Counted from the stretch's first letter, positions 15,632-54,552 are shown. The stretch: 64,000 bases of DNA from Candidatus Rifleibacteriota bacterium (GCA_015232575.1 JADFZL010000003.1:192001-256000); one strand, 5' to 3'. A program made the numbers and translations. Notes: generated by a model from the sequence alone, not told the origin.

Positions 15632-15632
15632 C

Positions 15633-16473: not shown

Positions 16474-16493
16474 GAGCGTTTGAAACATATCTT

Positions 16494-16544
16494 AAACAAA
16501 AACGCACAGGAATGAAACCTATTTCGTGTGCGTTTTTGTTTTAA
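16494..16544. terminator. Bidirectional intrinsic terminator (AACGCACA...TGTGCGTT flanked by A-run and T-run)
   Basis: Inverted repeat with flanking homopolymer runs, lying between the convergent DUF3343 (+) and fdhA-Cys (-) genes. Confidence 0.6.
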
Positions 16545-16553
16545 TGAAAAATG

Positions 16554-19235: not shown

Positions 19236-19262
19236 AAATTCCTCCAGTATTGTTATTTAATA

Positions 19263-19305
19263 ATGAAAAAAGACAAAACGGCATTAAGCATGCAGTTTTG
19301 TCTTT
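19263..19305 (-). promoter_or_regulatory. Terminator-like hairpin in the 5' leader of fdhA(Cys), ~30 nt upstream of its RBS (possible attenuator)
   Basis: The minus-strand RNA reads AAAGACAAAAC-ugcaugcuuaaugcc-GUUUUGUCUUUUUUCAUUAUU, an 11-bp stem plus U-run. The upstream ~600 nt is non-coding. Confidence 0.45.
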
Positions 19306-19912
19306 AAATTTTTTTGACAAAAAAGAACTACAAATACGAAAAAGTATTACTTTTTGTTTATTGGCGAGACCCGCCGTTTCGATAAGGTGATTCATAGCTT
19401 ACACCTTATAAAAACAGCATTTTTCAAGAACAACCTTACATTATTATTATGAAACATTTATATTGTACACAGAACAAAAGATTGAAGACATTAAAGTTAC
19501 CAGCGCAGAGGAGAGGTAACCGGTAATGATCTTTCCAATTTATTGTTGTCGCCTGCTTTACTAAGTTAAAACCTCTTATTAACTGAAATCTCTTTAATAG
19601 AATCGCAATTTTCATATTGTATAAACAGATTCAAAAGTGTATGTACGAATTTTATAACCCGAATTTACGGAAAAGTCAAATTATCTGATCATCTTTTCAT
19701 GCAATTCGTATTACCACATTCCCTGTTACAGGTATCATTGATTCATCAAATAATTCAATCTGGAAAAAACTTTTTATAAACCTATCATGTAGTTCGTCAG
19801 ATTGTGCCTGAGACCGCGTTAGAAGAAGATTGTTGTACTCTACGGCTGAAAAGGTATTCTAAATAACCCATGATGATAGAAACTCTGAATAAAAAATTAA
19901 GCATTTAATTGA

Positions 19913-19950
19913 AAAAAACACAGGAAGTGCTTTCCTTCCTGTGTTTTTTA
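19913..19950. terminator. Bidirectional intrinsic terminator downstream of fdhA(Sec)
   Basis: AAAAAACACAGGAAG-tgcttt-CTTCCTGTGTTTTTT. Confidence 0.65.
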
Positions 19951-19971
19951 AACTAATGGCTAATGAAAATA

Positions 19972-22656
19972 CTATGCTTTTTCCAGTTTACATGCGCAGA
20001 CCTTGTATTCCGGTATTTTTGCTTCCGGATCAAGTGCGTTAATGGTTAGTTTGTTGGCAGGAGCTTCGATGAAGTGGAAAGGCATAAAAGCAGTTCCTTT
20101 AGGAATTCGCTTTGTAACGAAAGCCTTAGTGGTAACGCTGCCGCGGCGGGTTGTTACTTTAACGGTTCCACTGTTTGAAACGCCTAGTTCAACGGCATCT
20201 TCTACTGAAATCATTACATGAGGTCCGGCAAGATTATTCAATCCTTCGGATTTTCTTGTCATGGTTCCGGTGTGGAAGTGCTGTAGAATTCTTCCGGTTG
20301 TCAGATAAACCGGATAGTCTTTGTCGGGTAATTCAGCGGGATCTTTGAATGGAATTGGGAATAATGTCCCTTTTCCCTTGGTGAATTTACCAATATGAAG
20401 AACAGGAGTACCAGGGTGTTCTTTTGTTGGACATGGCCAATGCAGACCTTTTCCTTCAAGTCTTTTGTAATCTAATCCGGCATAGCTCGGAGTGCATTTG
20501 GTCAATTCATCAAAGATATCTTCTGCGGTATTATATTTCCAGTTGTGACCCATTTTATTGGCCAGAAGTTGATGAATCTGCCAGTCATCTTTTGCTTCCC
20601 CGGGTGGTTCAACGGCTTTGTGCAACAATTGTACACGGCGTTCAGTATTAGTGAAGGTACCAAGTTTTTCGGGCCATGTACTGGCAGGAAGTACAACATG
20701 TGCCATTTTAGCTGTTTCCGTAAGGAAAATGTCTTCGACAACCAGGAAATCAAGCTTTTTGAGGGCTTCTTCAACATGGTGAAGATCTGGATCACTCAGC
20801 ATCGGATTTTCACCCATAATGTAGAATGACTTTACTTCTCCCTTGCCAGCTTTGTCTATGGCAACTGTAAGCGTTAATCCATTTTCAGCACTGAGCTGAC
20901 AACCCCAGAACTTTTCGAACTTTTCCTTGATTTCAGGAAGTGTAACTTTCTGATAAGCAGTGTAAACGACTGGAAGTCCGCCAACGTCACATGCGCCCTG
21001 GACGTTTGACTGTCCACGCAGCGGATTAACACCACCACCAACTTTACCCATATTGCCACAAATCATTTGCAGATTTGCACAAGATTTAACATTGTCAACA
21101 CCAGTGGTGTGCTGGGTAATGCCCATTGCGTAATAAATCGCTGCTGACTTTGCTTTTCCAAACATTTCTGCAATTGCTTCGAGGGTTTTTGCCGGGATAC
21201 CAGAAATCTTCTCAACGTGCTCAGGAGTGTATTTTTCTACTTCTGCTTTCAACGCTTCAAAACCTTCACATCTTTCAGCGATGAATTCTTTGTCTTCCCA
21301 GCCATTCTTGATGATTACATGCATAATTCCGTTAAGAACAGCAACATCTGTACCTGGTCTCTGAGCGGCATAGATTTTGGCGTAATCTGCCATTTTAATT
21401 TGTTTGGGATCAATAACAATTATTTTCAACCCATGTTTTGATGCCTTTTTCAAGCGGGCAGCAATTACCGGATGGGCTTCAGATGTATCGGAACCAATTA
21501 TTAGAGCAACTTCACTTTTACCAACTCCTGCGATATCATTTGTCATAGCTCCAGAACCAAAAGATGCGGCCAGACCGGCCACAGTGGAGCTGTGTCATAA
21601 TCGCGCACAGTGATCGACGTTATTCGTCCCTATCACTGTGCGAAAGAACTTTTGAAAAGTGTAGTTTTCTTCGTTTGTAACTTTTGCTGAAGAAAAACCC
21701 ATTAAAGAATTTGGACCATGTTTTTGTTTAATTTCAGAAAACTTTGTCGCTACTAATTCAATTGCTTCATCCCATGAAGCTTTTCTGAAAGAGCCATCAT
21801 TGTTTCTGATTAAAGGTGTAGTAAGTCTTTCCTTGTGATCTACAAAGTCATATCCAAAGCGGCCTTTTACACAAAGCATACCGTAATTGGATGGGGCGCT
21901 TTCAACGCCGTTGACCCGGACAATCTTGTTGATTTTCCGGTCGACATGAATTTCCATCTGGCAACCTACACCACAATAAGGACAAACTGAAGTCACTTTG
22001 TCAGTTTCCCAGTAACGCGCCATTCCTTTTGCTTTTTTCTCAGTTATTGCGCCAACTGGACAAATCTGAGAACATTCACCACACTGGACACAGGTGGAAT
22101 CACCCATCTTCTTGTCATCATCAAAAATGACTTCAGTGTTGTGTCCTCTGTAACCAAAATTCAAAACATCGTTTGTAACAGTATTCTGACATGCAGAAAC
22201 GCATCTTCCACAAGCGATGCACTTGTTTCGATCGACCTGAATAAATTCTGAGCTGTCATCAAGATTCGGTTCAAAATCAGCATAGTTCAATGAAGGTTTT
22301 TCAATGCCAAGATAATATGCGGCATCCTGAAGTTCGCACTTGCCGTTTTGCTGACAGGCAATACAATCGTGCGTTCCATTAGAAAGCAGAAGATCAATAA
22401 CAAGTTTCTGACCATCCACAGCTTTCTGGGATCTCGTCTGAATCTTCATTCCCTCTTTCACAATTACTGAACAGGATGTCTGAAGACCTTTCATCCCTTC
22501 AACCTCTACTACGCAGGCTCGGCATTTCCCTGCCACGCCAACCTTCTCATGGTAACAAAGAGAAGGAATATAAATTCCATTTTTCCTTGCGGCCTGAAGA
22601 ATGGTTTGCCCTTCTTCAGCCTGCAATTGCTTGTCATTGATGGTAATTAGCATCAA
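19972..22656 (-). CDS. fdhA: Formate dehydrogenase catalytic subunit, selenocysteine-containing (UGA-Sec at 21597..21595); the track shows it as two ORFs
   Basis: ORFs 21595..22656 and 19972..21582 are in the same frame, separated only by TGA. The joined translation VDHCARL-U-HSSTVAGLAAS aligns with the Cys paralogue's VDHCARL-C-HASTVAGL. A SECIS-like structure follows the UGA. Confidence 0.85.
21541..21594 (-). ncRNA. SECIS-like stem-loop immediately 3' of the fdhA UGA
   Basis: The RNA reads CACAG-CUCCA-CUGUG, then a 7-bp stem AGCUCCA...UGGAGCU enclosing GGCC-GGUCU-GGCC. The equivalent region of the Cys paralogue lacks this complementarity. Confidence 0.5.
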
Positions 22657-40547: not shown

Positions 40548-43271
40548 TTGAACGATGAGATTCTGAAAAAAATATCAACTGTTCTGGAACAGCCTGACGA
40601 GTATTTTTCTCATACTGGCGCCCTGTTTTTTCTTGGTTATATTAATGAACAACCTGATTTTTTTACTGTTGTTTCGTCACGTCGCAGGCGCAGTAAAGTT
40701 ATTGATAACACTCAGATACACTTTGTATTTTTCCCAAAGACAAAAATTCATCATATAAACAGAATTGAATACAGTGGCGTTCAAATCAGCGTTTCGAATC
40801 TTGAGAAATCGCTTTGTGACATTTTTGATTATATGGAATTCTCACCGGTTATTGAAAAAATTGTTGAACTTGTTGCTAAACTTCCTCTTAATGTCAACGA
40901 ACTTTTGAATATGGCGAAGTTTTCTGATTCTGCCCTGAAAAGAATTTCATTTGTACTCGGACTTACCGGAAAAATTTGTTCAGCAGATCTTCCCTTTGAT
41001 GAAATGACACGCGCACCAGTGTTTTTATGTACAAGAGAAAAAGAATCTGAACAAATCTGGGACAAAAGATTTTTTCTTAAATACCCTTTGAAAATTCTTT
41101 CGACAGGTCTATCACCAGCCGAAACTGAATTAGACAGTGGTCTTTTTGAATGGCTCGAATTGTGGTCTTTTGAATTCTTCAGGCAGTATTTTTTCGATAA
41201 AAAGTATTGTCCAATTCGTGGAGAACCTTCTTCTGAAAATCTTATTACCGAATTTACCGGAGAATTCATTTCACATCTAACACCCGAAGAGCTTGAAACA
41301 TTGCTGGAATCGCAGATCGATTTGTTCTATGAGAAGCAGCTTATTCAAAGGAAACGAGTTTATCCGATATTTTTTAATCGATTTTTACAGTCGAATTTTC
41401 ATTTACTTAATCATCGAAAAGATGAAATCATTCATTTTGTCCGAAAAAATTTGTTTTCTAATGATTTAAAGCGCTGTGAAAACTCACTTTACATTGCCTC
41501 AGTTTTTAAAATGGAAAAAGAACTTCTGGAATGTCTCAATCACCGTGGTTATGAACTTCTGAACTGTGGCAGGGACCGCATTGTCAAGAAAGTAATTGAG
41601 GATTTGAGAAAAAGACAATTTGATCTTCCATTTCTTTTATATACGATAGCTGCAAGAATTTATGCCAATCAGGGACGCTATGATGATGCAATAACAATCC
41701 TTGAAGAAGGAAAAATTAAATTTGAAAAGCTTGAAGATTCCTGGCTTGCTTTGGGTGAAATAGCTTATGCTTCTGCTAATCTTTACAGGATGATGCTCAA
41801 ATTTGAGACTGCTTTTTCGCAACTATTTATTGCAAAAGAGTGTTTTACACAGAAAAACGATATTCGCGGTCTTGGAATGGTCGAATCTTCTATCGGTAGT
41901 TTGTACTTCGTAAGAGGAAATCCTTTAGAAGCCCGTGAACACTATCTGAAATCTCTTACTATGATGAAAAAGATCGGAAACCGAGCTGCTCAGGCTGCAA
42001 TTATCGGAAATCTGGGTATTATTGAATATGATTCAGGAAGATATGACAGAGCTAATAACCTTCTATTGAGAGCAATTTCGCTGCAGAAATCTTCGAAAAA
42101 TAATTTGAGCCTGAGCAATCTTATGCTTACCAGGGGAAAAACCCTGCTGCAGATGGGTTATCTTAACCGGGCTTTCAGACTTCTCAAGGAAACATACAGA
42201 TTAAAGCAGGAAATCAGCCATTTACCAGGATTACATGAAACTTATGCTTTTCTTGGATGGGTCTGTGAGTTGCTCGGAAATAAGGCCGCATCAGTATCCT
42301 GGTGGAATCTTGTACCGGACGATACAAAGGTGGCAAATGATCCAAGAGTGTTCTATATGGTTAAAACTCTGCGCGGTTTTATGAAAATCTTTTCCGGAAA
42401 TCTTACTGAAGCGCAAAATCATTTTGAAAACCTCAGAAAAATATCTCTCGAAATGGATTTACCACCACTTGGAACCGAAGCAGCAATTTTTGGAATTCTA
42501 CTTAACCGGGTAAGATTGAGAAATTCGTTTTCAGATATTTCATACGATTTTCCTTATAAACAGCTATCCAAAAAGACCGAATATCAGACAGCATGTTCAC
42601 AACGCGCATTAAATGCAATTCTAACTGAATTGTCAAAACCCTCGTCCGAAATTGACAACCTCATTGTTACTAATTCAATTCAACAGTTTCTTGAAAATAG
42701 TGCCTATGATGTATTCTGGGGATTCTATGCTGAAAAACTCATTTTTTTGAATCTCGAACCTGCAAAGAAATTCCTTCGCATTCATTTCATAAAAAGTTCA
42801 AAATATATTCTTGACCACTATAAAAAAGTAATTCCGGGATTCGCGAAAATACTAACTGGCATTTCGAAATATACCACAGATGAAGTTGCAGTACAAGGTC
42901 AATCCAATGCAGATTTGCAGATTAGTAAAGAAGAAAAAGATAATACGATATTATTTAATTGCGAAACCGGAAAATTGTCATATAGAAATTATTCTCAGAT
43001 AATTAAACCCGGATCAATTCCCAACAGGATTTTTTCAAATCTGATACTCGCTTTTCCAAATTCAATAGAAATTGGGGATCTGTTTCAATCTGTCTGGGGA
43101 TTCGAATTTGATTCTGAGTCTGACCCACCGGCTGTAAAAAGTTCTCTATCACGACTAAGAAAAATTGTTGCCTCGGTTAATAACGGAATAAAGATAAAGG
43201 TAAAGGGAATTTCTTCTTCGAAAGGCAAAATAGCTGTTAAATTTCCATGCCGATGGTACGCAAATATGTAA
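40548..43271 (+). CDS. Large TPR-repeat protein with a C-terminal OmpR/PhoB-type winged-helix DNA-binding domain
   Basis: 907 aa. The central TPR-like helical repeats and the C-terminal wHTH are each inferred from the protein sequence; the C-terminus DLFQSVWGFEFDSESDPPAVKSSLSRLRKIV fits a trans_reg_C-type domain. Confidence 0.5.
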   Translation: MNDEILKKISTVLEQPDEYFSHTGALFFLGYINEQPDFFTVVSSRRRRSKVIDNTQIHFVFFPKTKIHHINRIEYSGVQISVSNLEKSLCDIFDYMEFSPVIEKIVELVAKLPLNVNELLNMAKFSDSALKRISFVLGLTGKICSADLPFDEMTRAPVFLCTREKESEQIWDKRFFLKYPLKILSTGLSPAETELDSGLFEWLELWSFEFFRQYFFDKKYCPIRGEPSSENLITEFTGEFISHLTPEELETLLESQIDLFYEKQLIQRKRVYPIFFNRFLQSNFHLLNHRKDEIIHFVRKNLFSNDLKRCENSLYIASVFKMEKELLECLNHRGYELLNCGRDRIVKKVIEDLRKRQFDLPFLLYTIAARIYANQGRYDDAITILEEGKIKFEKLEDSWLALGEIAYASANLYRMMLKFETAFSQLFIAKECFTQKNDIRGLGMVESSIGSLYFVRGNPLEAREHYLKSLTMMKKIGNRAAQAAIIGNLGIIEYDSGRYDRANNLLLRAISLQKSSKNNLSLSNLMLTRGKTLLQMGYLNRAFRLLKETYRLKQEISHLPGLHETYAFLGWVCELLGNKAASVSWWNLVPDDTKVANDPRVFYMVKTLRGFMKIFSGNLTEAQNHFENLRKISLEMDLPPLGTEAAIFGILLNRVRLRNSFSDISYDFPYKQLSKKTEYQTACSQRALNAILTELSKPSSEIDNLIVTNSIQQFLENSAYDVFWGFYAEKLIFLNLEPAKKFLRIHFIKSSKYILDHYKKVIPGFAKILTGISKYTTDEVAVQGQSNADLQISKEEKDNTILFNCETGKLSYRNYSQIIKPGSIPNRIFSNLILAFPNSIEIGDLFQSVWGFEFDSESDPPAVKSSLSRLRKIVASVNNGIKIKVKGISSSKGKIAVKFPCRWYANM

Positions 43272-43384
43272 TCCACCTTTTAATCTTTTATTTGCGGGTA
43301 AATATAATTGAATTGTGGTAATTATATTTGTTTTTTTTTCCATGTCATGGTAATTTAAAAAAAATATTGCTGGAGGAGAAAAGA

Positions 43385-44032
43385 ATGAATTTAATCGAAA
43401 AGTTGCCAGAGTTACCGCTTTTTCAGGATTTTTCAAGAGACGAAATCAAAACTCTCGCCGGATTAATGCAAGTTATTGAGGCAAAAGAAAAAGAAGTAAT
43501 TTTTGATGAAAAATCTCCCACTTCGGCTGTATATTTTATTTTATCCGGGCGTGTAAGTATATATAAAATGCTTCACGGCGCGGCAAATTTTTTGACAATT
43601 CTTGAAAAGGGTGATCTTTTTGGAGAGGTAGCTTTTGTTGATCAAAAAGCCAGATCTGCGAGTGCATCGGCACTTGATGATGTAAAACTTGCAAAGTTTG
43701 CTTATGAGCATTTTGAAGTTATTCAGAAACAGGCACCGGTCGTCGGAATGAAACTGGTCGTTCTTCTCATGCGTGAACTGGCAAGAAAATTCCGTGCTGT
43801 AAATGCAGGACTTGATCTGAAATCACTTGAACATACAATTAATGAACTTATTGTCATGAAACAGCAGGTTAAAGTAACAACTTCTGATACAGAATATATC
43901 TGTTCTATTTTGTATTTTGACCGTGTTTCAAATAATCCATTTCTGAAAATCGATTATAAGAGTCAAACAATTCTCCTGCCGTTTTCACAGATAAAATCGA
44001 TCATTCTTCCTAATCAATATGGAAAATTCTAA
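43385..44032 (+). CDS. Cyclic-nucleotide-binding (CAP-effector-like) domain protein
   Basis: cNMP-binding-like beta-roll motifs (GDLFGEVAFVD...RSASA). Start ATG 43385 after GGAGGAG. Confidence 0.6.
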   Translation: MNLIEKLPELPLFQDFSRDEIKTLAGLMQVIEAKEKEVIFDEKSPTSAVYFILSGRVSIYKMLHGAANFLTILEKGDLFGEVAFVDQKARSASASALDDVKLAKFAYEHFEVIQKQAPVVGMKLVVLLMRELARKFRAVNAGLDLKSLEHTINELIVMKQQVKVTTSDTEYICSILYFDRVSNNPFLKIDYKSQTILLPFSQIKSIILPNQYGKF

Positions 44033-44043
44033 GCCATCATAAA

Positions 44044-45114
44044 ATGTCAGAAAATCGCCTTTACGAACTTTTAAAGTTGACTTATGAACATAAGGCATCT
44101 GATCTCCATCTCAAAGTTGGACAGAGTCCAGCGGTCAGAATAGATGGTTCCGTTGCTTATGTTGATGGAATTAAGTTTTCCCGTCGTGATTTTGATGGAA
44201 TTCTTGAGTCACTTCTTTTGCCTGATCAGATAGCTGAATTCAATGATACCTGCGAACTCGATTTTGCTTATGCTCTTGAGGGCGTATGCAGATTCAGAGT
44301 TAATCTTTATAAAGATATCAACGGAATTGGAGCGGCTTTCAGAATTATTCCGCAGAAAATTCTTACTTTCGACGAAGTCGGATTGCCTGCAGCAGGGCAG
44401 AAACTCATTGAACAGCCGAACGGACTTATTCTTGTAACAGGTCCGACAGGTGCAGGAAAAACATCAACGCTTGCGGCGTTTATAAACTATGTTAATTCGC
44501 ATGCAAAAAGACATATTGTTACTCTTGAAGACCCGGTTGAGTACCAGTTTGATGATGAAATGTGCATTATTAATCAACGCCAGATTGGTATTGACTGTCC
44601 AAGTTTTTATGATGGGCTTCTGACAGTCCTTCGCCAGGACCCTGACATTATTGTAGTCGGAGAAATGCGCGAGCCTCGCACAATAGCTCTAACGCTCAAT
44701 GCAGCAGAAACAGGAAAACTTGTACTTTCCACTCTTCATACTACATCGGCTGTTCAGACAGCAGAGAGAATAATAAATGTCTTCCCTGAAAATCAACAGA
44801 ATCAGGTGCTGCATCAGCTTTCCATGGTTCTGCGCGGTGTCATTTCGCAGACACTGCTTCCTAAAAGAGGCGGCGGACGAGTTGCAGCGTTCGAAGTACT
44901 TTTGAATACTTCGGCTGTACGTGCAATAATAGCTGAGGGAAAGATACATCTGCTGCCGTCGGTTCTTGAGACCAGCAGCGAAGTTGGAATGGTTACGCTT
45001 GAGACATCCATGCTCAATCTGATTAAAAGCGGCCTGGTCAATCCGGAAGATGCCATGGCACTGGCACCGAACCCTGTTCTGATGAGGAAAATGCTCGATG
45101 GAATCACGGAATAA
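44044..45114 (+). CDS. pilT: PilT-family type IV pilus retraction ATPase
   Basis: Walker A (GPTGAGKTST) and PilT N-terminal motif (ASDLHLKVGQSPAVRIDG). Confidence 0.85.
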   Translation: MSENRLYELLKLTYEHKASDLHLKVGQSPAVRIDGSVAYVDGIKFSRRDFDGILESLLLPDQIAEFNDTCELDFAYALEGVCRFRVNLYKDINGIGAAFRIIPQKILTFDEVGLPAAGQKLIEQPNGLILVTGPTGAGKTSTLAAFINYVNSHAKRHIVTLEDPVEYQFDDEMCIINQRQIGIDCPSFYDGLLTVLRQDPDIIVVGEMREPRTIALTLNAAETGKLVLSTLHTTSAVQTAERIINVFPENQQNQVLHQLSMVLRGVISQTLLPKRGGGRVAAFEVLLNTSAVRAIIAEGKIHLLPSVLETSSEVGMVTLETSMLNLIKSGLVNPEDAMALAPNPVLMRKMLDGITE

Positions 45115-46153
45115 ATATTTAAGAATTTATAACCTTTTCGAAGTTGCGGTAACGAAAAAAGCATCAGATTTGCATTTGAAAGCCGGCAGTCCGCCAGTTC
45201 TCAGAATTGGAGGGCGCCTCGAAATGCTGAACGAAGAACCTTTAACCGCACAGGAAATGCCAAATCTCTTTCTGCCGGTTCTGGAAGTTGGCTGTCAGGG
45301 AAGCCTGCGATTTAAGCACGAAGCTAATTTCATCATACCGTATGAAAAAAAATGGAGAATAAGAGCGTGTATTTACCGTCAGCGTGGCGCATTGTCAGGG
45401 GCTTTTAGATTTATTCCCAATAAAATTCCTTCAGTTGATTCGCTTTCACTTCCCCCTAAGCTCAAAGAAATGGCTCTCAGACCCCGCGGAATCTTCCTTG
45501 TGACCGGACCTGCAAACTCGGGAAAATCACATACGCTTGCCGCAATGGTAAATGAAATCAATCGAAATTCATGTCGCCATGTTATTACAATTGAAGATCC
45601 GATAGAGTTTGTACATTTGCCAAAACGTTCTATTTTTACTCAACGTGAAATAGGAAGTACTACAAAAAGTTATCATGCTTCGCTCATGCACGCTCTACGT
45701 CAGGACCCTGACGTAATTCTCGTTGGGGAAATGAGAGATCTTGAAACCATCGAAATGGCTCTTACTGCGGCAGAAACAGGGCATCTTGTACTTTCCACAC
45801 TTCACACAGTCGGCGCCGTAGAAACTGTTGACCGAATTGTGAATGTATTTCCCGGGCACAGACAGGATGAAATTCGAGCTATGCTTTCTCTTTCGCTTAA
45901 CGGGCTTATTTCGCAGATACTTCTTCCGGGAAAAAAGAAAAATGAGCGCGTTATGGCTTATGAATTCATGGTACCCAATTCTGCAATGAGAAATCTTATT
46001 CGTGAAAAGAAAACTAATCAGCTAAAATCGGCACTGATGCTTGCCCGAAAAGACGGCTGTATTACATTGAAAGACAACCTGAGTGAACTTGTAACTGACG
46101 GTCGGGTTGATCCAAAACTTGTTAACAATATTCTCAAGGAGATCGTAGAATGA
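45098..46153 (+). CDS. Second PilT/PilU-family ATPase paralogue
   Basis: GPANSGKSHT Walker A and ASDLHLKAGSPPVLRIGG. Overlaps the pilT stop. Confidence 0.8.
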   Translation: MESRNKYLRIYNLFEVAVTKKASDLHLKAGSPPVLRIGGRLEMLNEEPLTAQEMPNLFLPVLEVGCQGSLRFKHEANFIIPYEKKWRIRACIYRQRGALSGAFRFIPNKIPSVDSLSLPPKLKEMALRPRGIFLVTGPANSGKSHTLAAMVNEINRNSCRHVITIEDPIEFVHLPKRSIFTQREIGSTTKSYHASLMHALRQDPDVILVGEMRDLETIEMALTAAETGHLVLSTLHTVGAVETVDRIVNVFPGHRQDEIRAMLSLSLNGLISQILLPGKKKNERVMAYEFMVPNSAMRNLIREKKTNQLKSALMLARKDGCITLKDNLSELVTDGRVDPKLVNNILKEIVE

Positions 46154-48309
46154 TTCAGCAGCATGAAGAAATCGAACCTTTTCGGCTGATCAAAGCCGGA
46201 AGAAGGCTTTTAAAGCCCGCTTCAGAAATAATGTTTTCGTTTCTTCAGAATGCATCAGAAGAAACAAAGTTTCAGGCTGCCATAAATATCGGTAAAATTG
46301 GAGATCCGGTTTCGCAGGAAATTCTTTCAGAATTTCTGGATTTATTCCCCGACAGGCCTGAACCTATAACTGCGATTGGTTTTTTAAAGGACAGTTCGCC
46401 CGTTCCAAAACTTATTAAGCTTCTCTCAACGCAGGATTACCAATTCAAAGAAGAAATTGTACGAGTTCTCGGAGAGATTGCCGATCCGCAGGCTGAAGCA
46501 ACTTTGAAAGAGCTGCTTCACGATGTTGAACGCATGGTGCGTTATTATGCTGCATGGGCGCTTTACCGGCTTGGCGGAAGAGATGTTGTACAAAGTCTCT
46601 GTTCACTTCTTTCAGATCCCGATGAGTGGATCGTAGTAAATGCTCTTGAAATCTTATCAAGATTGAAAGATCCTGAAGCAATTCCTTCGCTTGTTGGACA
46701 ATACAAAATTGCGAGAGATCCAAGATTAAAAGCGATTATCATTTCATCCCTCGGAGCATTTGCTGACGGGCATCTGCTTCCTATTTTCGAGGAAGGGTTG
46801 AAATCTTTTGATTTTCGAATTCAGGCAAACGCTGTAGAAGCAATTTCCAATCTTAAAATATCTCCGCTTGAAGTTAAACGGAAGATAAAAAAGTTTATTT
46901 CACATTCAAATAATCGTCTGAGAGCCAACACTGCTATTGCAATCTTTCGCTCTGATCCGGCAAAAGCTCTTCAGGAAGTTGAAGAAATGATTTTGAGCAA
47001 TGACCTTCCGACACGAAGATCAGCGGCCTATGTTCTTTCAAAAGTTAATCTGGAAAAACGCAGTGAGCTGATTGGAAGACTGCTTGCCGACTCAGCATTC
47101 GGTGTGCGAAAAATGGCATTAAAAGCCGCTCTGTCTTTGTCTTCCGAAGTAGGAACAGGTCGAATTATCCCACTTCTCAAAGATAAAAATCAGTGGGTCA
47201 GAAAAGAAGCAGTAGATTGTTCAAGGAAAATTGATGATATTGATCCGATACCATTTATTGATGCTTTCAAAAGTGAAAACTCGCCGCCCGTTCTGGAAAG
47301 CATGCTGGATTTATTTGTTGAAAGAAGAGTAAAAGCATCTGTTCCGCTTATTCTTGCCAAAATCAAGGGAAAGCCAGAAGAAGGTCTTGCTAAACTGTTG
47401 TACTCACTCGGAAAACTTAATGCAAAAGATGAGCTTCTCGAAGCAGGGAAATTTTTTGCGGCAGACGATCTCAACGTCATGAAAGAGTATTACATTGCGC
47501 TTCTGTTTAATGGTGAAATGGGTGTTTTTCAAACCGTGACAGATTTTCTTGCAGGCAGAAAACGCGAAGATGACCGAATTGCCGCAATGAATCTGGTCGG
47601 TGACATAGGGTTGTTTTTGAGAAATACAGAAAATTTTTCTGGAATTCTGTCACAGGCGCTTTTCCTGGAAGCAAAAAAGGACATGGCAGATATTGTTGAA
47701 TTTGCTGAGCCTGAAGTTGTTTCACCTTCAACAATGTCCGTAGAAAAAGGCATTGAATTGTTTTCTGCCGGTAAGTTCAAAGAAGCTGAGAAATATTTTA
47801 TTTCTCTTCTGAAAAACAATCCGCTTGATTCAGAGGCATTATTCCATTTTTCAAATACTCTTATTAAACTGGGAAAATACCCTGAAGCTGTTCAGAATCT
47901 CGATAATCTTATTCATATTATGCCCAGTCATTTTTCAGGAAGGCTTCTCATCGGGCAGTTGTACTTTCAGCTTAGAAACTGGGACAAACTTGTTGAAGAA
48001 TATGAAAAGTTGAAGCTTCAGATTCCGGAAACGGAAAAAAAGTCTGTAAGTCAGGTCTATGGTGCTCTGGGTCTGGCATATTTCAATCAGAAAAGATATC
48101 AGAAAGCCGTTGAAAATCTCAAAAAAGCTCTTGAAATCAATCCATCTGATATGAGTTCTTCCTACCATCTGGCTCTTGCATTTATAAGCCTGAAACAAAA
48201 CGATTCAGCTTTAAAAATCCTGAAAAAGCTTAAAAGCAGCCTGCCACCCGACAGCCGCATTCTAAAAAATGTCGAAGATCTCCTCATAAAGCTCGAAGAA
48301 GAAAGCTAA
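46150..48309 (+). CDS. HEAT-repeat (PBS-lyase-like) protein with C-terminal TPR repeats
   Basis: Repeated xxRxxAxxALGxIGDPxA-type HEAT units, and C-terminal TPR-like helices. Confidence 0.55.
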   Translation: MIQQHEEIEPFRLIKAGRRLLKPASEIMFSFLQNASEETKFQAAINIGKIGDPVSQEILSEFLDLFPDRPEPITAIGFLKDSSPVPKLIKLLSTQDYQFKEEIVRVLGEIADPQAEATLKELLHDVERMVRYYAAWALYRLGGRDVVQSLCSLLSDPDEWIVVNALEILSRLKDPEAIPSLVGQYKIARDPRLKAIIISSLGAFADGHLLPIFEEGLKSFDFRIQANAVEAISNLKISPLEVKRKIKKFISHSNNRLRANTAIAIFRSDPAKALQEVEEMILSNDLPTRRSAAYVLSKVNLEKRSELIGRLLADSAFGVRKMALKAALSLSSEVGTGRIIPLLKDKNQWVRKEAVDCSRKIDDIDPIPFIDAFKSENSPPVLESMLDLFVERRVKASVPLILAKIKGKPEEGLAKLLYSLGKLNAKDELLEAGKFFAADDLNVMKEYYIALLFNGEMGVFQTVTDFLAGRKREDDRIAAMNLVGDIGLFLRNTENFSGILSQALFLEAKKDMADIVEFAEPEVVSPSTMSVEKGIELFSAGKFKEAEKYFISLLKNNPLDSEALFHFSNTLIKLGKYPEAVQNLDNLIHIMPSHFSGRLLIGQLYFQLRNWDKLVEEYEKLKLQIPETEKKSVSQVYGALGLAYFNQKRYQKAVENLKKALEINPSDMSSSYHLALAFISLKQNDSALKILKKLKSSLPPDSRILKNVEDLLIKLEEES

Positions 48310-48315
48310 CCGCAA

Positions 48316-48500
48316 AATTCAATCTTGTCTCTTGTCTGTAAATCCTAATCCACGAACTGCTTTAAATCGTAAATCTCATTCAATCTTTCTTGTATTTAAA
48401 TCTTAATCCGCGAACATCTATTAATCCTAAATCTCATTCAATCTTCACTCTTGTCTTTAATCTTAATCCACGAAATCTGCGAAATCTGCGAAATCTGCGG
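48316..48500. repeat. Direct-repeat array: ~60-bp unit x3 (TCATTCAATCTT...AATCTTAATCCRCGAA...) plus 9-bp CGAAATCTG x3
   Basis: Read directly in the intergenic region between convergent genes. Confidence 0.6.
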
Positions 48501-48558
48501 ACAGCTTTCAATCTTGAATCTTTAATCTCAAATTGGAATAATCAGTAGTTAGAGCGAC

Positions 48559-51396
48559 TCATGAAAGTACAGTTTTCTCTTCTCTTGCGATAATCACGAC
48601 TGTGAAGTCATCTGGTTGGGGCTTCTTTGACAATGTATGTTCATGATTATCAAGATAGTCATCACAGGCTATTTCTATAGGTAATGGTTTTCTTGAAGCA
48701 AGGTAATCCTGGAATTTTTCAAACTGGTCTTCGTTGATTTCTATATGCATAGACTCTACAAGTCCGTCAGTGTACAACACAATTCTTCCGCCCGGTTCGA
48801 GTGAAAATGATTTTGGAAACAAGCGTAATTTCTCTTTCGAGCCTAACGGGAATCCCCCTGCTTCAATCATTTGAATCTTACCATTCTTTTCAATATGAAA
48901 TGGAAATGGGTGACCGCCATTATAAACAGAAACTTCGTTTGTTTGCGAATCTATCCAGACAAAAGTTGCAGTCATAAGAAGCTGTTTGTGGAAATTCTGA
49001 AGAATTGTTTTATTCAGAATAGAAATTACCTCGCCAGGTTTTTCGCCAGCCTGAGTTCTTTCCTGAACAACTCCTTTTGCCATTGCCATTACAAGAGCAG
49101 CAGGAACGCCGTGTCCGGTAACATCTCCGATCAGAACAAGCAGATAGCGGTTTTCGACCGTAAGATAGTCAAAGTAGTCGCCTCCAAGCTGGCTGGCCGG
49201 TCGCGATTTTCCAAAAACAGAATATTCACCGATTTTAAGAACATTTGCAGGGAACAATTGTGACTGTACTTCTTTTGCAACACTGACTTCATAAAGGCTT
49301 TCAAGCATGTGATTAAACATTTTTGTCAGATTGCCAAGCTCATCTGCTTCGAATACAGGAAGTTCAAATCGATATTCTCTTCTTTCAATAGCTTGTACGC
49401 CACCAGAAAGATTATCAATTGGTTTAAGCAGTTTCTGAGAGAGTAAAATGCCCAGAAATACGCTTATTGAAATACAAATTACAGCAAATCCAATTAATAA
49501 TCGTCTTGTCCTGAGGATTCCTGCATTAATTTTAGAGTCATCCTGCAGAGCTATCAGTGAACACGATTTCATGTCTTTCGGTTTAATTCCGGTATAGAAT
49601 AGTGTTTTCGAAGACGTAAAATCTTTTCGGTTAATTGTTGTACGCAAGAGTTCAATCCATTGCCCAATAAAATGAACCGCATTCGGAAATTCTCTGGAGG
49701 TAGAAGCTTTCCAGCTATTATCAGAGCTTAAAGCAAACACTTTCATACCTTTTGGAATAGCTTTTTTTGTTTTTACAAGGTTTTCCACATATATTTTTTC
49801 GACCTCATTTATCAGCCAATGCATTTCAATAAGATGAGTTACTTTTTTCTGATTGTTATATAAAGGCTTCAGATAAATCCAGGAACGGTTGTTTGAGAAC
49901 TGATAATCTTGAAGTTTTCCAAGTCCTCCTACAAGAAGGGAAATTATGTTTACTCCACCAAAAGAGCTTAAAAGTTCTGCTTTTAAAGCAGTTTTGAGGT
50001 TATCAGGTTCATTGTTCAAGTATGATGCAAGCGTCTTCATTACCTCACCCGAAGTTTTCGATCCTCTGGAGTTACTGATATCATTACCTTTTCCATCGAA
50101 ACAAAACTCAAATTTTCCACTTGCATTGTAAACGCTTAATCGATCAACTTGCATTTTTATTCCAAAAGATTTGAGTTTATTTTTTGCTGAAATTAAATCG
50201 TGTGTAATCAGTTGATCAAAGATTTTTATTGATTTATTTATCTTATTTTGAAATTTGTATCTCAAAACAGGAAAATTTGAATCAATGTGTCTGAGCGTAC
50301 GTTCTGCCTTTTCAAGACTTTTATTTATCTGAAAATCATATTCTTTATCAAGATAGTCCCAGCCGATTGAAAAAATTACCAGCAAAGGCAGCAAGCTGGC
50401 GTAAAAGAAAAGAATCATCAAGCGCCATTTAATTGAAAAATAGGTTTTTTCTCTGCCGAAATTAATAATTGCCGAAACTGATATTAAAAAGGCAAAAAGA
50501 ATAGTTGCGAAAACAGAAAGAATAATTCGGTAACGAAAAGTTTGATTAAAAATGTCTGTATTAAATGAAACCCACAGTATTGAAGAGCTTTTCAACCTGG
50601 AAAAAGACATAAGTGTATTTTGAAATCGAAAAGATGTATTTGGATTTTTCTCAATCAGTTTAAGTGCTTTTGCTAATGGTCCTGAAGATGTTACTGTATC
50701 ACTGATAGCAGATAAACCAACACTTACTGAAGCATTCTGTTTTGTACTCTGAAAGAATTTGATTTTATCTTTGACTGCCATTTCAGTCCAGTCCTGGGGT
50801 GTGTTAAAATGAACAAAAACACCACCATTGCTGGAAATAGAGTAAAAGAACCAGTGATTCTTTTCTTGATCGTTAACTTTTAATACCTCTTGAGAATACT
50901 TTGGAAACCTATCGGGTGATGTATCTTGACCGATATAAGATTTCAGAAATTTCCAGTCCTTTTCAAAGGGCTCAGGATTGTTTAACGTTTTTTCACATAA
51001 GTCTTTGTATAACGTCTTCAAGACGAATTTTGGAGGATTGGACTCTGAAACTTCAGGAATTACTTCACCTCTGGAATTTACTGCGTAAATAGTACAAACA
51101 TCTGGAAAACGAGATTTTATGTCATTTTTTGCTTTTGCAGAAAACAAATATTTTCCATGAAATATTTGTTCTGAAAATTTTTGAAAAACAAATTCGAGAT
51201 AGTCTAAAGTATCTTCCCGTTTTCTTAAGTTGAGAAGAATCTTTTCCTGAAGAAGAAAACTTGATTCTAAGGATTTTTTTTCCAGATCATCAAATCTTGT
51301 CCTTAATCCATAGACTGCAAGCATAATGGGTAATGCAAAAAAAATTAATGCAGAAAAACACCAGAGAATTCGTTTTTTTAGAGTAGGAAAAATCAT
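48559..51396 (-). CDS. Membrane sensor with HAMP domain and PP2C/SpoIIE-type serine phosphatase domain (RsbU-like)
   Basis: 945 aa. N-terminal TM and sensor region, HAMP linker, and C-terminal GDVTGHGVPAALVMA PP2C motif. Confidence 0.75.
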   Translation of the reverse strand: MIFPTLKKRILWCFSALIFFALPIMLAVYGLRTRFDDLEKKSLESSFLLQEKILLNLRKREDTLDYLEFVFQKFSEQIFHGKYLFSAKAKNDIKSRFPDVCTIYAVNSRGEVIPEVSESNPPKFVLKTLYKDLCEKTLNNPEPFEKDWKFLKSYIGQDTSPDRFPKYSQEVLKVNDQEKNHWFFYSISSNGGVFVHFNTPQDWTEMAVKDKIKFFQSTKQNASVSVGLSAISDTVTSSGPLAKALKLIEKNPNTSFRFQNTLMSFSRLKSSSILWVSFNTDIFNQTFRYRIILSVFATILFAFLISVSAIINFGREKTYFSIKWRLMILFFYASLLPLLVIFSIGWDYLDKEYDFQINKSLEKAERTLRHIDSNFPVLRYKFQNKINKSIKIFDQLITHDLISAKNKLKSFGIKMQVDRLSVYNASGKFEFCFDGKGNDISNSRGSKTSGEVMKTLASYLNNEPDNLKTALKAELLSSFGGVNIISLLVGGLGKLQDYQFSNNRSWIYLKPLYNNQKKVTHLIEMHWLINEVEKIYVENLVKTKKAIPKGMKVFALSSDNSWKASTSREFPNAVHFIGQWIELLRTTINRKDFTSSKTLFYTGIKPKDMKSCSLIALQDDSKINAGILRTRRLLIGFAVICISISVFLGILLSQKLLKPIDNLSGGVQAIERREYRFELPVFEADELGNLTKMFNHMLESLYEVSVAKEVQSQLFPANVLKIGEYSVFGKSRPASQLGGDYFDYLTVENRYLLVLIGDVTGHGVPAALVMAMAKGVVQERTQAGEKPGEVISILNKTILQNFHKQLLMTATFVWIDSQTNEVSVYNGGHPFPFHIEKNGKIQMIEAGGFPLGSKEKLRLFPKSFSLEPGGRIVLYTDGLVESMHIEINEDQFEKFQDYLASRKPLPIEIACDDYLDNHEHTLSKKPQPDDFTVVIIAREEKTVLS

Positions 51397-51400
51397 TCCG

Positions 51401-53770
51401 TCAGGGAACCTGAATGTCCAGACATTGTCCTCGAATTTGCTCTGATTCGTTAATTCTGTACGGAAGGTAACTTATTTTCAATTTTGTACCAACTGGTACA
51501 TTTTTAAAAAATATGCCCGGTTTAGGAGAGAGAAAATATATTTTGCCGTCTGTTCCTTTAAGGCTCAGCCAGTCTCGGTTGACTTCCAGCACCTCACCAG
51601 TTATATATTGTACAACAGATATCAGTTGATTTCCTAATAGTCTCCCCTCAGGGGTTTTTACCGCTGGAATTAATAGAAAAAGCTGATATCCAAACGCTAC
51701 CAAAGCAATATACAAAAATATCTTTGAGTTTTCCGAAAAAAAATATTTTACTTGAGGAAGTAAACTTTCAACATAATTGTAAAAGCTTTTTTGAACAGAT
51801 TCTTTCGAAAGAGTTTTAACGCTGTAATCTGCAGGTGGTGTCTTTTTTCTTGCTTCGGCTTCTTGGAAACGTTTTTCAAGGATTTCCTCTGATTCTTTCC
51901 AGGTTGCGATTGATATCTGCTGGGTTTGATGAAGAATAGTATAGTTTTCCATACGGGTGTTATAAACTTTTTTTGCATCATCAAGATTCGATTTATTTAT
52001 TAAATGCTTTTCCAGAGAGTAAAGAACAAAAAGGTTTTCTGAATCCGGATTAGAATTGAAAAAAAACAGGGCAGTGGAAAAAGGTTCTGCAGAGTCACAA
52101 ACCCTCAGATAATCATATAAAATGTCTCTGATTGCAACAAAATCAAAATGAATCAAGCAAATCAGAGCTGCTTTATGAGAATCTATATCTCGTTTATTAA
52201 GCATTGCTCTTACAGATGACAATGCCTGTTGCTTGTCTCTTGAGTTAAGAATCTTTATAGCAGTACCTTTTACTCTTGGAAGATCGCTCTGAAGAAATTT
52301 TCCGAGAAAGGGAAAAAGCCAGTCAAAATCGTATTCTCCAAGGTATTCCATGGCTGAAATTGCCAGTTGTTGATTTTTGGATTGTACAACATCTCTTGCT
52401 ACCGCAACATGTTCCTTCAATTTAAGGCGTATTGCTGTCTTAAGCGCGATTGCCTGTAAATCAGGAAGGCTCTTCTGGTCTGTCAGGATATTTTTCAAAA
52501 TTTGTAATTCATCTTGATTTGCACCTTTTGACCATGAAACTATTTTTCGCGCTTTTTCATCATGTGACAGATTATTAAAATCAGTAGGTTTTTCCTCAAG
52601 GGGTTTCTGGTCAGGGGCTTTTTGGTCATTTTCAAAGCACCCGGAAATATATTCACGCGCTTTATCTGATATTTGCCATTGAAGAGCTTCAGTAAGGATC
52701 TCTTTTACTAATGGGTCGTCTTTTTTTTCTTTAACCCATGAATCAACTTCAAGAAGCGCACTTGAATCGCTGTCAAAAGAAGAAAGTAATTCTCTCAGCC
52801 AGAAAACAATTTTGCGCCGTTTAATCCAGTGTTTAAGGCGCTCATAATACTCAGAAAACGAATCCCCCAATATTCCTGATTTTTCTATGTTAATACAGCA
52901 GTTTTTTAGAAGTACCTGAAGAATCTTTTTCTTATTTTCAGAAGAAGATTCTAAAATTTCCCATAATCTAAATGGCATTTCAGGGTCAGGGTTGTTTTCT
53001 ATTAGAACTCCGAATCTTAAAAGCACTTCAGTATCATCAACCATCGCCAGAGCGCGCAGAACCATTGGTTTTATGCTTGAGAAAGGGAAAAATATTGAAT
53101 TTTGGATTCCGGCAATAATAGATTCGGTTAGTCCGCTTTCAAGCAAAAGTCCGAGATGGTTCAATGCTTCTTCATTATCTATTTTTGACAATCCAATTAT
53201 CGCCAGAGTGCGGATTCTCAGTTCGTGGTGAACAAGTAATTTAGGAAGATCACGCCGGAGACTTTCAGGGGCTTTTTTTATCAGAAGTTCTATTGTTGCC
53301 ATTCTGAGGGAAAGCGATTCGGCGATAAGATGTCTGGAAGCAAGTCTCAACGCATCAACAGGAAAAACATTTATAAAAGTTCTAAAGAGTGAAACAAGAA
53401 CAGCAGGGTCTTTTTCTGACTTTAAAAGATGGGGGAGTTCAGAAGAAAACTCTTTGAGCTGCTCTGGTTTTATTGAATCCATGAGTAAAACTTTGCTACG
53501 ACTATCTGCATTTTCAAAGCGCAGAAGGAATTCTTCTCTGGTAAGTATCCCTTTATCGGCTTTGCCAGAACAGCGTTTTTCAATGAGGAGAAATGCAAGT
53601 TCAAGCTGTCTGAGGCACTCTGAGTCTTTTTCTACCTCTTTACGGGAAGAAAGAAGCTCAAGGAACTTTGAGGAAGGAGGTTCCTGAATAATATTCTCAA
53701 TTGCCTGAAGTCTTATTGATTTGTCCTTAGACCATAATTCCATTTTCAGCGCTTGGTCAGCCATTCTCAT
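51401..53770 (-). CDS. HEAT-repeat protein with C-terminal TM segment, co-transcribed with the PP2C phosphatase
   Basis: 789 aa. Helical repeats inferred from the protein sequence, one hydrophobic helix near residue 690, and a 4-nt gap to the downstream gene. Confidence 0.45.
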   Translation of the reverse strand: MRMADQALKMELWSKDKSIRLQAIENIIQEPPSSKFLELLSSRKEVEKDSECLRQLELAFLLIEKRCSGKADKGILTREEFLLRFENADSRSKVLLMDSIKPEQLKEFSSELPHLLKSEKDPAVLVSLFRTFINVFPVDALRLASRHLIAESLSLRMATIELLIKKAPESLRRDLPKLLVHHELRIRTLAIIGLSKIDNEEALNHLGLLLESGLTESIIAGIQNSIFFPFSSIKPMVLRALAMVDDTEVLLRFGVLIENNPDPEMPFRLWEILESSSENKKKILQVLLKNCCINIEKSGILGDSFSEYYERLKHWIKRRKIVFWLRELLSSFDSDSSALLEVDSWVKEKKDDPLVKEILTEALQWQISDKAREYISGCFENDQKAPDQKPLEEKPTDFNNLSHDEKARKIVSWSKGANQDELQILKNILTDQKSLPDLQAIALKTAIRLKLKEHVAVARDVVQSKNQQLAISAMEYLGEYDFDWLFPFLGKFLQSDLPRVKGTAIKILNSRDKQQALSSVRAMLNKRDIDSHKAALICLIHFDFVAIRDILYDYLRVCDSAEPFSTALFFFNSNPDSENLFVLYSLEKHLINKSNLDDAKKVYNTRMENYTILHQTQQISIATWKESEEILEKRFQEAEARKKTPPADYSVKTLSKESVQKSFYNYVESLLPQVKYFFSENSKIFLYIALVAFGYQLFLLIPAVKTPEGRLLGNQLISVVQYITGEVLEVNRDWLSLKGTDGKIYFLSPKPGIFFKNVPVGTKLKISYLPYRINESEQIRGQCLDIQVP

Positions 53771-54195
53771 TTTTCCCGCAAGATTATATTAAACGTTCCC
53801 AGATAGTTTATCATATTTTTTTTGAAGATAACAACAATCTTTTTTGTACTGAATAAAGCATATAATTAAGGTTTGAATATGATGCAACAACTTAAAATCG
53901 AAGACTATTGAAGGCAATATCAGTAAACATAGTTTTCTTGTTGAAAATTATGTTTTTTTGACACTGTGGTAAATTCGCTGAATCAAGTAATTCCCTTTAT
54001 CGATTGGGTATTATCATGTTCTGTCTATTATTACGAAAAAACAGATTGGAAGTTAATGTGCTCATTATGTTGCATAAGACAAGAATTTCCTTTTGAAAAA
54101 TAACTTGATTATGATATCATGAAAATAATTAGCAGATTAATTATTGTATTAATTTGATGCATGCAGTTTCTATCGTAAAAACAGGAGATATTTTG

Positions 54196-54552
54196 ATGGA
54201 CAGTTTCAAAATTGCCGAAAGTGAATTGAATGGTATTTCAATATTAACCTTTGATGGATACTGTGCAAAAGAGGGCGGAGCTGCTCTCAAAGATAAAACA
54301 CACGAAATTTTGCAGAAAGAGAAATGTCGAATAATACTTGATTTCACCAAATGCTCAATTATAAGCAGTCCTGGAATTGCTGCGATTCTTGAAGTAGTTA
54401 TGGAAGTTATTGACGATTGCAAGGGAGAACTATGCATCGTAGGACTGGACAAATCCAAGAAGCATTTTCTTCAGATGACCGGCGTTATTCCACTGGCCAA
54501 AACTGCTGCAACTGTAGAAGAAGCTTGTGTGCTGGTTAAAACAAAGAGTTAA
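54196..54552 (+). CDS. STAS-domain anti-sigma-factor antagonist (SpoIIAA/RsbV-like)
   Basis: ~118 aa STAS fold. Start ATG 54196; the track ORF starts earlier. Confidence 0.6.
   Translation: MDSFKIAESELNGISILTFDGYCAKEGGAALKDKTHEILQKEKCRIILDFTKCSIISSPGIAAILEVVMEVIDDCKGELCIVGLDKSKKHFLQMTGVIPLAKTAATVEEACVLVKTKS

Follow-up and report, generated by a model that had tools for sequence, protein, structure and literature searches.

A 64,000-nucleotide stretch of a genome from Candidatus Riflebacteria, an uncultured phylum (JADFZL010000003.1, 192001-256000; the whole 64-kb stretch is referred to as the window), carries five closely spaced genes encoding a 907-aa protein with TPR repeats and a winged helix, a cyclic-nucleotide (cNMP)-binding protein, two PilT-family ATPases (PilT_A and PilT_B) and a HEAT/TPR repeat protein (Table 1). 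The last three of these genes form a trio which is a phylum-specific conserved operon core in Candidatus Riflebacteria, and we favour, with a probability of approximately 0.55, the interpretation that the trio encodes a pair of filament-retraction motors and a solenoid adaptor, specific to the phylum, whose synthesis keeps pace with that of PilT_B. A preliminary description drawn from the sequence of the window had proposed that all five genes constitute one signalling and motor module. The presence of five plus-strand genes at the positions it gave was borne out by a check of open reading frames (ORFs), and its domain calls for four protein types (the TPR repeats of the 907-aa protein, the cNMP-binding protein, the two ATPases and the HEAT/TPR protein) were matched by Pfam and TIGRFAM scans with the qualifications described below. 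The five-gene module itself was not conserved in relatives, where only the trio was kept and neither the 907-aa gene nor the cNMP gene adjoined pilT at any of 47 other loci.

A conserved pilT_A-pilT_B-HEAT/TPR trio

Loci for comparison were obtained by scanning species-representative genomes, one for each species, with an alignment-based search that took the HEAT/TPR protein as query, yielding 47 loci of the trio type. ORFs at each locus were sorted by BLAST against reference proteins and the arrangements tallied, with gene order counted over evaluable loci (for example the 41 with enough downstream sequence). The order pilT_A-pilT_B-HEAT/TPR was observed at 42 of 43 evaluable Riflebacteria loci. 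In the window pilT_A and pilT_B overlap by 17 nt and pilT_B and the HEAT/TPR gene by 4 nt (ATGA), whilst 113 nt separate the 907-aa gene from the cNMP gene and 11 nt separate the latter from pilT_A. The overlap between the pilT_B stop and the HEAT/TPR start was exactly 4 nt at 43 of 48 loci and 1 nt at two more, the others being ORF-calling artefacts. The linkage of the two pilT genes and the HEAT/TPR gene is therefore overwhelmingly beyond chance, and the coupling of the HEAT/TPR gene to the second pilT gene noted in the preliminary description is a general property of these loci, at which linkage is retained rather than lost. When the window was compared by tblastx with its nearest relative (locus L004, PilT proteins 87% identical) only the trio was common to both and all flanking sequence differed, indicating that the trio is the unit that is kept together when the cluster breaks.

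At most loci the trio forms part of a wider cluster, its predicted transcription unit running on into further genes. Two further PilT paralogues, PilT_C and PilT_D, follow the trio at 39 of 41 evaluable loci, the only exceptions being the window and L004. At 42 loci PilT_C reads SPSGxGKT, its EDP has become ENP and its Walker B GE has become DS (signature SPSGxGKT...DSxNY), and the His-box His is absent; PilT_D, also at 42 loci, has substitutions of Walker A GK to GI (signature GPxRSGIS), GE to GD and the His to Q. From this pattern of degeneracy both look like pseudo-ATPases kept under selection. Genes for the filament subunit-like proteins pilin1 and pilin2 were present at 34 and 32, respectively, of the 41 loci whose downstream sequence was long enough. 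A second HEAT/TPR paralogue of approximately 800 aa was found within 35 of 50 loci, usually upstream in divergent orientation and accompanied by recG and a 61-aa ORF. Conserved next to this second gene, besides recG, was a gene for a RecD2-like helicase. In a co-directional block at L001 (3034-7793), and at 27 further loci, the second HEAT/TPR gene is joined by the 61-aa ORF, recG and a gene for an RsmD-like methyltransferase, and the second-HEAT/TPR/recG block adjoins the pilT cluster in either orientation. A 789-aa HEAT-repeat protein encoded elsewhere in the window (HEAT789, 51401-53770, minus strand) was considered as an orthologue of this second HEAT/TPR protein and ruled out, there being no significant similarity.

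PilT_A and PilT_B are PilT-type ATPases with intact motifs

PilT_A scored 415.7 bits against the TIGR01420 pilT_fam model (curated cutoff 319.1 bits), with residues 6-344 aligned to model positions 2-341 of 343, and PilT_B scored 395.3 bits, with residues 10-338 aligned to positions 2-330 of 343. Walker A, Asp box, Walker B and His box motifs were GPTGAGKTST, IVTLEDPVEY, DPDIIVVGEMRE and LVLSTLHT in PilT_A and GPANSGKSHT, VITIEDPIEF, DPDVILVGEMRD and LVLSTLHT in PilT_B, and these catalytic motifs were intact in 45 PilT_A and 44 PilT_B orthologues. The Walker A Lys, the acidic residues of the Asp box, the Walker B Glu and the His-box His are essential for PilT activity (PMC5065972). As judged by their sequences, both window ATPases are PilT-type proteins in which no residue required to bind and hydrolyse ATP is missing. 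The AIRNLIRE-motif region is near-canonical in PilT_B (AMRNLIRE) and variant in PilT_A (AVRAIIAE), and the two proteins are 39% identical to one another.

The two ATPases had been described as PilT plus a PilT/PilU paralogue, and whilst assignment of both to the PilT family was confirmed, the second is not PilU-like, with scores of roughly 300 bits to PilT against 220 to PilU. The closest solved structures for PilT_A were PilT of Aquifex, Geobacter and Pseudomonas (approximately 305 bits), compared with 225 bits for PilU (9n32), and the corresponding values for PilT_B were 300 bits for PilT and 215 bits for PilU (9n32). As PilT scored higher for both proteins, neither belongs to the PilU subfamily. 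Neither is a member of the PilB/GspE group, the 356- and 351-aa proteins having no N-terminal extension; GspE and PilB models matched only the core of PilT_A and PilT_B (residues 119-250), at scores far under their cutoffs.

The HEAT/TPR protein is a predicted cytoplasmic solenoid

The HEAT/TPR protein, which is 100% identical to a deposited protein from a Candidatus Riflebacteria metagenome-assembled genome (MAG), matched HEAT_2 over six stretches (E=5.5e-48) and TPR families at residues 530-705, and the invariant residues of its HEAT part lie within 106-330. Approximately 80 near-full-length homologues with 39-72% identity were found, and the named ones all came from Riflebacteria/Ozemobacteraceae. 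An AlphaFold2 (AF2) model generated with 51 homologues had a mean predicted local distance difference test score (pLDDT) of 91.3 and comprised an all-helical solenoid (residues 10-512), a low-confidence linker (516-525) and a TPR domain (531-718). Foldseek searches with this model returned generic solenoids only (SF3b, karyopherins and designed alpha-Rep proteins), matches that would fit a binding scaffold and nothing more specific. On inspection the N-terminus (MIQQHEEIEPFRLIKAGRRLL...) was without a hydrophobic segment and without a Cys in the first 40 residues, from which the protein is predicted to be cytoplasmic and to lack a signal peptide. Some homologues bear PilF/PilW-type labels in the JGI annotation; identity with the PilF/PilW/Tgl pilotins was ruled out by the lack of signal peptide and lipobox, by a model that is a soluble solenoid throughout and by a score of 52.8 bits against the PilW model, for which the cutoff is 154.

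HEAT repeats and PilT were also found joined in single proteins. The metagenomic proteins P0111 (832 aa) and P0120 (835 aa) each consist of N-terminal HEAT repeats and a PilT ATPase, and a second PilT gene lies directly after each fusion gene. These fusions provide independent domain-fusion support for a HEAT-PilT partnership. They are like the window trio in bringing together HEAT_2-type repeats and PilT, here in one polypeptide, with a second PilT next, and differ from it in that the HEAT repeats are N-terminal, so that the order is reversed, in having no TPR lobe and in belonging to another lineage. In P0120, the fusion examined for this, Asn stands in place of the His-box His of the PilT part. 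HEAT-PilT fusions of approximately 830 aa lie at L003 (10001-13583) and L136 (4157-7720), where genes for Sortilin/BNR proteins adjoin them, and at L136 a gene with a faint PilZ-domain match lies upstream of the fusion.

Prepilin-type genes and the link to a filament

Every ORF of at least 150 aa outside the five-gene region of the window was scanned with Pfam, and no pilB, pilC, pilD, pilM-Q or gsp gene was found among the ORFs of this size. The preliminary description was correct in this respect as regards pilB, pilC and pilM-Q, although its further statement that no other pilus genes lie nearby needs qualification, since a motif scan revealed two prepilin-type ORFs (60820-61281 and 61278-62036) 12.5 kb downstream of the trio. 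Of the components of a complete type IVa pilus or type II secretion system (T2SS) gene cluster (assembly ATPase, platform protein, prepilin peptidase, alignment complex and secretin), none was found among the window ORFs of at least 150 aa or in approximately 50 related clusters, prepilin-type genes alone being present. The 153-aa ORF has the N-terminus ...AFSLIEVLIAVVF and matched the PilV model TIGR02523 at E=6.3e-7, which is under the model cutoff, and the 252-aa ORF, with the N-terminus ...AFTLMEIMVVAII, scored 21.6 bits against N_methyl (cutoff 21.2 bits). Their sequences make it possible that both are filament subunits of the same organism. Homologues of the two ORFs were not found at the other loci, including among genes past pilin2, and homology of the window prepilin-like cluster to the post-pilin2 genes of relatives was ruled out as no similarity was found. 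The ORFs form part of a cluster at 57209-62036 that also encodes a 721-aa protein that has a membrane helix at its N-terminus and a 390-aa HExxH lipoprotein, the prepilin-type products themselves having AFSLIE and AFTLME motifs. This cluster, for which no homologues were found at related loci, may by its composition be a minor-pilin set.

At related loci prepilin genes come directly after the ATPase genes. The pilin1 N-terminus conformed to [GA]F[TL]L[IV]E at all 34 loci having the gene (34/34) and passed N_methyl, whilst pilin2 is pilin-like and non-canonical, Glu5 being absent; two extra prepilins are encoded at L005. The earlier suggestion of a non-pilus use for the ATPases, based on the absence of pilus genes nearby, carries little weight, since model organisms usually have tandem pilT paralogues at a distance from their other pil genes (PMC6762196; PMC5065972). 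In addition, 34 of 41 relatives continue into prepilins. Because such remote pairs are normal, the missing assembly genes near the trio are not evidence for a non-pilus role. A PilB/GspE-type ATPase that includes an MshEN domain and a CxxC...CxxC motif is encoded by Candidatus Ozemobacter sibiricus. With a 109-aa C-terminal piece of this Ozemobacter gene as query, the protein database yielded only three short matches from unrelated lineages and a metagenome scan yielded only generic relatives with at most 42% identity.

The cNMP-binding protein is a species-specific neighbour

The cNMP gene is best read as starting with an ATG at 43385 that is preceded by GGAGGAG, and its 215-aa product is identical to a deposited protein. 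Residues G80, E81, R90 and A92 of the phosphate-binding cassette were invariant in 29 homologues. In the AF2 model (pLDDT 81.6) a CRP-like domain is followed by one helix and five strands (residues 148-207), with no helix-turn-helix (HTH), and the top Foldseek matches were to the nucleotide-binding domain and C-helix of GlxR and CRP. No match to HTH_Crp_2 was obtained, and a profile of the C-terminal region searched against PDB and Pfam gave no match other than a faint one to bPH_8. Compared with the CRP/FNR family, the protein therefore has the binding domain with an intact cassette and lacks the C-terminal HTH. The preliminary description of the protein as CAP-like holds for the nucleotide-binding domain and C-helix and fails for the HTH, in place of which there is a small five-strand beta domain.

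Homologues of the cNMP-binding protein, nearly all of 215 aa and 52-69% identical, occur phylum-wide, and those in Candidatus Rifleibacterium and Candidatus Ozemobacter are encoded in unrelated contexts. The gene for this protein was beside pilT at none of the other 47 species-level loci. The linkage to pilT on which the earlier proposal relied is accordingly species-specific, with the homologues in Candidatus Rifleibacterium and Ozemobacter lying elsewhere. A pseudouridine synthase gene upstream in both the window and L054 was considered as a sign of a shared ancestral neighbourhood of the cNMP gene; this was ruled out, the synthases being paralogues only 24% identical and nothing else being common to the two. 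At L045, from a rumen Riflebacteria MAG, a 483-aa protein with cNMP_binding and AAA_31 (ParA/MinD-like) domains is encoded at 6403-7854, 29 nt upstream of pilT_A. Separated by 11 nt, the cNMP gene and pilT_A of the window are probably co-transcribed. In view of this gap and of the independent cNMP placement at L045, second-messenger control of the trio is still a possible feature here, in this species only.

The 907-aa protein is a regulator-like neighbour

TPR repeats occupy residues 365-573 of the 907-aa protein, with TPR_12 matching at 447-514 (E=3.9e-20). Its proposed OmpR/PhoB-type winged helix fell below threshold in the single sequence, for which Trans_reg_C gave E=0.061 and 13.8 bits against a cutoff of 26.2 bits and AfsR gave E=1.1, and was recovered at the level of the family profile, 28 C-termini together matching the ToxR DNA-binding domain at E=3.8e-6. 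Weaker matches of the same 28-member profile were to PhoB-family, SaeR, RpaA and PcoR chains (E 0.006-0.13), the range reaching 0.98 with WalR chains included. By this family profile the protein has a winged helix of the OmpR/PhoB/ToxR type, located C-terminally and so in an arrangement inverted with respect to SARP/AfsR regulators, as the preliminary description had it. It is not a SARP/AfsR member, there being no BTAD match, and the AfsR model scored 32 bits (cutoff 1430) and covered the TPR part only.

The family to which the protein belongs, with 55 cluster representatives at E<1e-30, consists of proteins of approximately 900 aa with a conserved N-terminal region of unassigned type, TPR repeats and a C-terminal winged helix, and with no receiver domain. 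No family member was detected near pilT at 50 other Riflebacteria loci by a family hidden Markov model (HMM) or tblastn. In the closest relative a 923-aa TPR protein is encoded near pilT; as an orthologue of the 907-aa protein it was ruled out by tblastn and by the family HMM. A scan of the region for promoters and terminators gave counts at background level. Most likely the 907-aa regulator lies beside the trio without any tie to it.

Interpretation and alternatives

If the trio encodes a motor pair with an adaptor, PilT_A and PilT_B would be working motors for the depolymerisation of a type IV filament, or of a pseudopilus, built from prepilin-type subunits. The HEAT/TPR protein, made at a fixed ratio with PilT_B, would bind the ATPase rings, one lobe contacting the motor and the other a partner, and would serve to bring the motors to the assembly platform, to position them there or to gate them. 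The ancestral cluster would add two dead PilT rings, a second solenoid and filament subunits, and dead PilT_C and PilT_D would serve as regulatory or structural rings. At the window and at L004 this cluster would have split, leaving the active trio at the locus, and in the window the trio would have landed 11 nt behind a conserved cNMP protein, such that any cyclic AMP (cAMP) or cyclic GMP (cGMP) input would be a local addition and not ancestral.

Several points weigh against this interpretation. Physical contact between PilT and the HEAT/TPR protein, and the regulatory role of the latter, are features we infer from gene order and sequence. The fold search offers no functional clue past that of a scaffold, and the HEAT repeats of the HEAT-PilT fusions resemble those of the HEAT/TPR protein at a generic repeat level (E approximately 1e-6 to 1e-7). 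Gene order within one phylum may partly reflect shared ancestry, and RecG is syntenic too (27 loci). No platform protein, secretin or prepilin peptidase gene was found in approximately 50 related clusters. The match of pilin1 to T2SSG is below threshold (E=0.005), and to our knowledge T2SS pseudopili do not use a retraction ATPase.

An alternative is that the two ATPases are an ordinary tandem retraction-ATPase pair, of the pilT-pilU kind known from Pseudomonas and Vibrio, for a canonical type IVa pilus encoded elsewhere, the HEAT/TPR gene being a mere operon passenger with an unrelated role in the cell. Such an arrangement would be in keeping with the frequency of tandem pilT paralogues away from pil genes (PMC6762196; PMC5065972), with the proximity of both ATPases to solved PilTs, with the PilB/GspE-type ATPase of Candidatus Ozemobacter and with HEAT/TPR repeats that are generic and have no pilus-specific fold match. 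A passenger gene would not, however, be expected to keep its 4-nt overlap at 43 of 48 loci although its product has diverged to 39-50% identity, nor to move as a block with the two pilT genes on breakage of the cluster, and the presence of a second HEAT/TPR gene beside the cluster and of HEAT-PilT fusions elsewhere likewise speaks for a partnership, so that we regard this alternative as unlikely. A use of the ATPases unconnected with pili, in which the PilT_A and PilT_B rings, the HEAT/TPR protein and the dead paralogues drive protein or DNA translocation or envelope remodelling, appears very unlikely: the sequences and motifs of both active ATPases are those of typical PilTs, and canonical prepilins come directly after the ATPases at 34 of 41 loci with more at L005, even though approximately 50 clusters are without platform, secretin and peptidase genes, a set of four PilT paralogues including two pseudo-ATPases is unusual, and the second HEAT/TPR gene has RecG and RecD2-like helicase genes as conserved neighbours.

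The five-gene module of the preliminary description, in which the winged-helix/TPR protein regulates, the cNMP-binding protein is a sensor of cAMP or cGMP and the PilT/HEAT complex is the target of both, we consider distinctly improbable. Neither additional gene is beside pilT at 47 loci, including the 87%-identical relative L004, and the cNMP-binding protein is a stand-alone protein in unrelated contexts. The location of the five genes on one strand with tight spacing, and in particular the 11-nt gap between the cNMP gene and pilT_A, would suit such a module, as would the conserved cNMP-binding residues, the winged helix of the 907-aa protein, which is real at profile level, and the unrelated cNMP_binding and AAA_31 protein directly upstream of pilT_A at L045; a 113-nt gap nevertheless precedes the cNMP gene and there is no evidence of an operator or shared promoter, the promoter scan being at background. 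Returning to the motor pair with its adaptor, a bolder extension, which we put forward tentatively, is that these genes specify a previously undescribed motor-control assembly. Active PilT_A and PilT_B, dead PilT_C and PilT_D and the two solenoids would together form one cytoplasmic complex that times and places retraction of a GspG-like filament, and the window would represent its minimal core placed under a cNMP sensor.

Other features of the window

Coordinates of the genes described above are collected in Table 1. The interval 48310-48558, between the convergent HEAT/TPR and PP2C genes, contains a 58-nt unit repeated 2.6 times (48317-48474) and, at 48471-48499, CGAAATCTG repeated 3.2 times. 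At 48559-54552, the minus-strand gene for a 945-aa HAMP and SpoIIE (PP2C) phosphatase begins 4 nt past the end of that, also on the minus strand, for the 789-aa HEAT-repeat protein, which has a C-terminal membrane segment and is unrelated to the pilT-linked HEAT/TPR protein, and a STAS anti-sigma antagonist gene (54154-54552) is followed by genes for an extracytoplasmic function (ECF) sigma factor and FecR. From these predicted functions the 48559-54552 region is possibly a partner-switching set.

A selenocysteine island at 3086-22656 encodes SelD-like, SelB and SelA proteins and tRNA-SeC (10786-10879, minus strand). Its formate dehydrogenase alpha gene (19972-22656, minus strand) has an in-frame TGA at 21595-21597 within the motif VDHCARL-U-HSSTVAGL. 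A second formate dehydrogenase alpha paralogue (16554-19235) is uninterrupted, and FdhD, MobA-like and NuoF-like genes are close by.

Table 1. Genes and ORFs discussed in the text, with positions in the window except where another locus is named
Feature	Position	Strand	Basis and comment
TPR/winged-helix protein, 907 aa	40548..43271	+	TPR_12 E=3.9e-20; family profile; neighbour only
Cyclic-nucleotide-binding protein, 215 aa	43385..44032	+	cNMP_binding (PF00027) E=3e-17; species-specific neighbour
pilT_A, PilT-family hexameric ATPase, 356 aa	44044..45114	+	TIGR01420; first trio gene
pilT_B, second PilT-family ATPase, 351 aa	45098..46153	+	TIGR01420; second trio gene
HEAT/TPR solenoid protein, 719 aa	46150..48309	+	HEAT_2 and TPR families; third trio gene
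Two overlapping prepilin-type ORFs, 153 aa and 252 aa	60820..62036	+	Motif scan, N_methyl/PilV matches
PilT_C/PilT_D in L001	12218-14325		Motif degeneracy, equivalents in 42 loci

Relation to known systems

The pilT-pilU pairs of Pseudomonas aeruginosa and Vibrio cholerae resemble the window ATPase genes in being two adjacent PilT-family genes with intact motifs that lie away from the assembly genes. They differ in that both window proteins are approximately 80 bits nearer to PilT than to PilU and in that the protein with the AIRNLIRE-type motif comes from the second gene of the pair and not from the first. The literature searched describes neither a HEAT/TPR partner gene nor dead paralogues for pilT-pilU systems. 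A similarity is also seen with Myxococcus xanthus and Geobacter sulfurreducens, which have four or five PilT-family genes per genome, several of them outside the pil cluster. Fine-tuning roles have been proposed for these paralogues (PMC5065972; PMC13584747), and all four Geobacter PilT paralogues keep the Lys of Walker A, the Glu of Walker B and the His of the His box (PMC5065972). In contrast, PilT_C and PilT_D of Riflebacteria have lost such residues in a conserved pattern and their genes are clustered with HEAT/TPR genes. A cluster containing conserved dead PilT paralogues is not known to us from any described system, a point on which no specific search was made.

A partial parallel to the HEAT/TPR protein is SgmX of Myxococcus, a cytoplasmic TPR regulator reported to act on the extension ATPase PilB. 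Both are large cytoplasmic helical-repeat proteins, known or predicted, for which a part in recruiting or activating a pilus motor ATPase has been proposed, and SgmX differs in acting on an extension motor, in not being encoded with its motor and in having no HEAT lobe. As regards second messengers, cyclic di-GMP acts on pilus ATPases via MshEN, PilZ and FimX, and cAMP controls pilus genes via Vfr and SYCRP1, the known cAMP regulators of pilus genes being CRP-type transcription factors with an HTH. The window is like these systems in that a nucleotide-sensing protein adjoins a pilus motor gene, which suggests ligand control, and it differs from Vfr and SYCRP1 in that its cNMP-binding protein is without an HTH and its linkage is confined to this species. 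The literature searched contained no paper linking bacterial PilT to HEAT-repeat partners and nothing relevant on Riflebacteria pili, Ozemobacter or Rifleibacterium.

How the cell recruits retraction ATPases to the pilus base, and how it switches them against the extension motor, has yet to be settled in pilus biology. A phylum-wide solenoid coupled to an active PilT, together with dead PilTs conserved in most members, points to dedicated adaptor and pseudo-enzyme components. Such parts are not known from the model organisms studied so far, and the candidates identified here are fit for heterologous expression. The proposed cyclic-nucleotide link represents a species-level rearrangement and not a design principle of the system.

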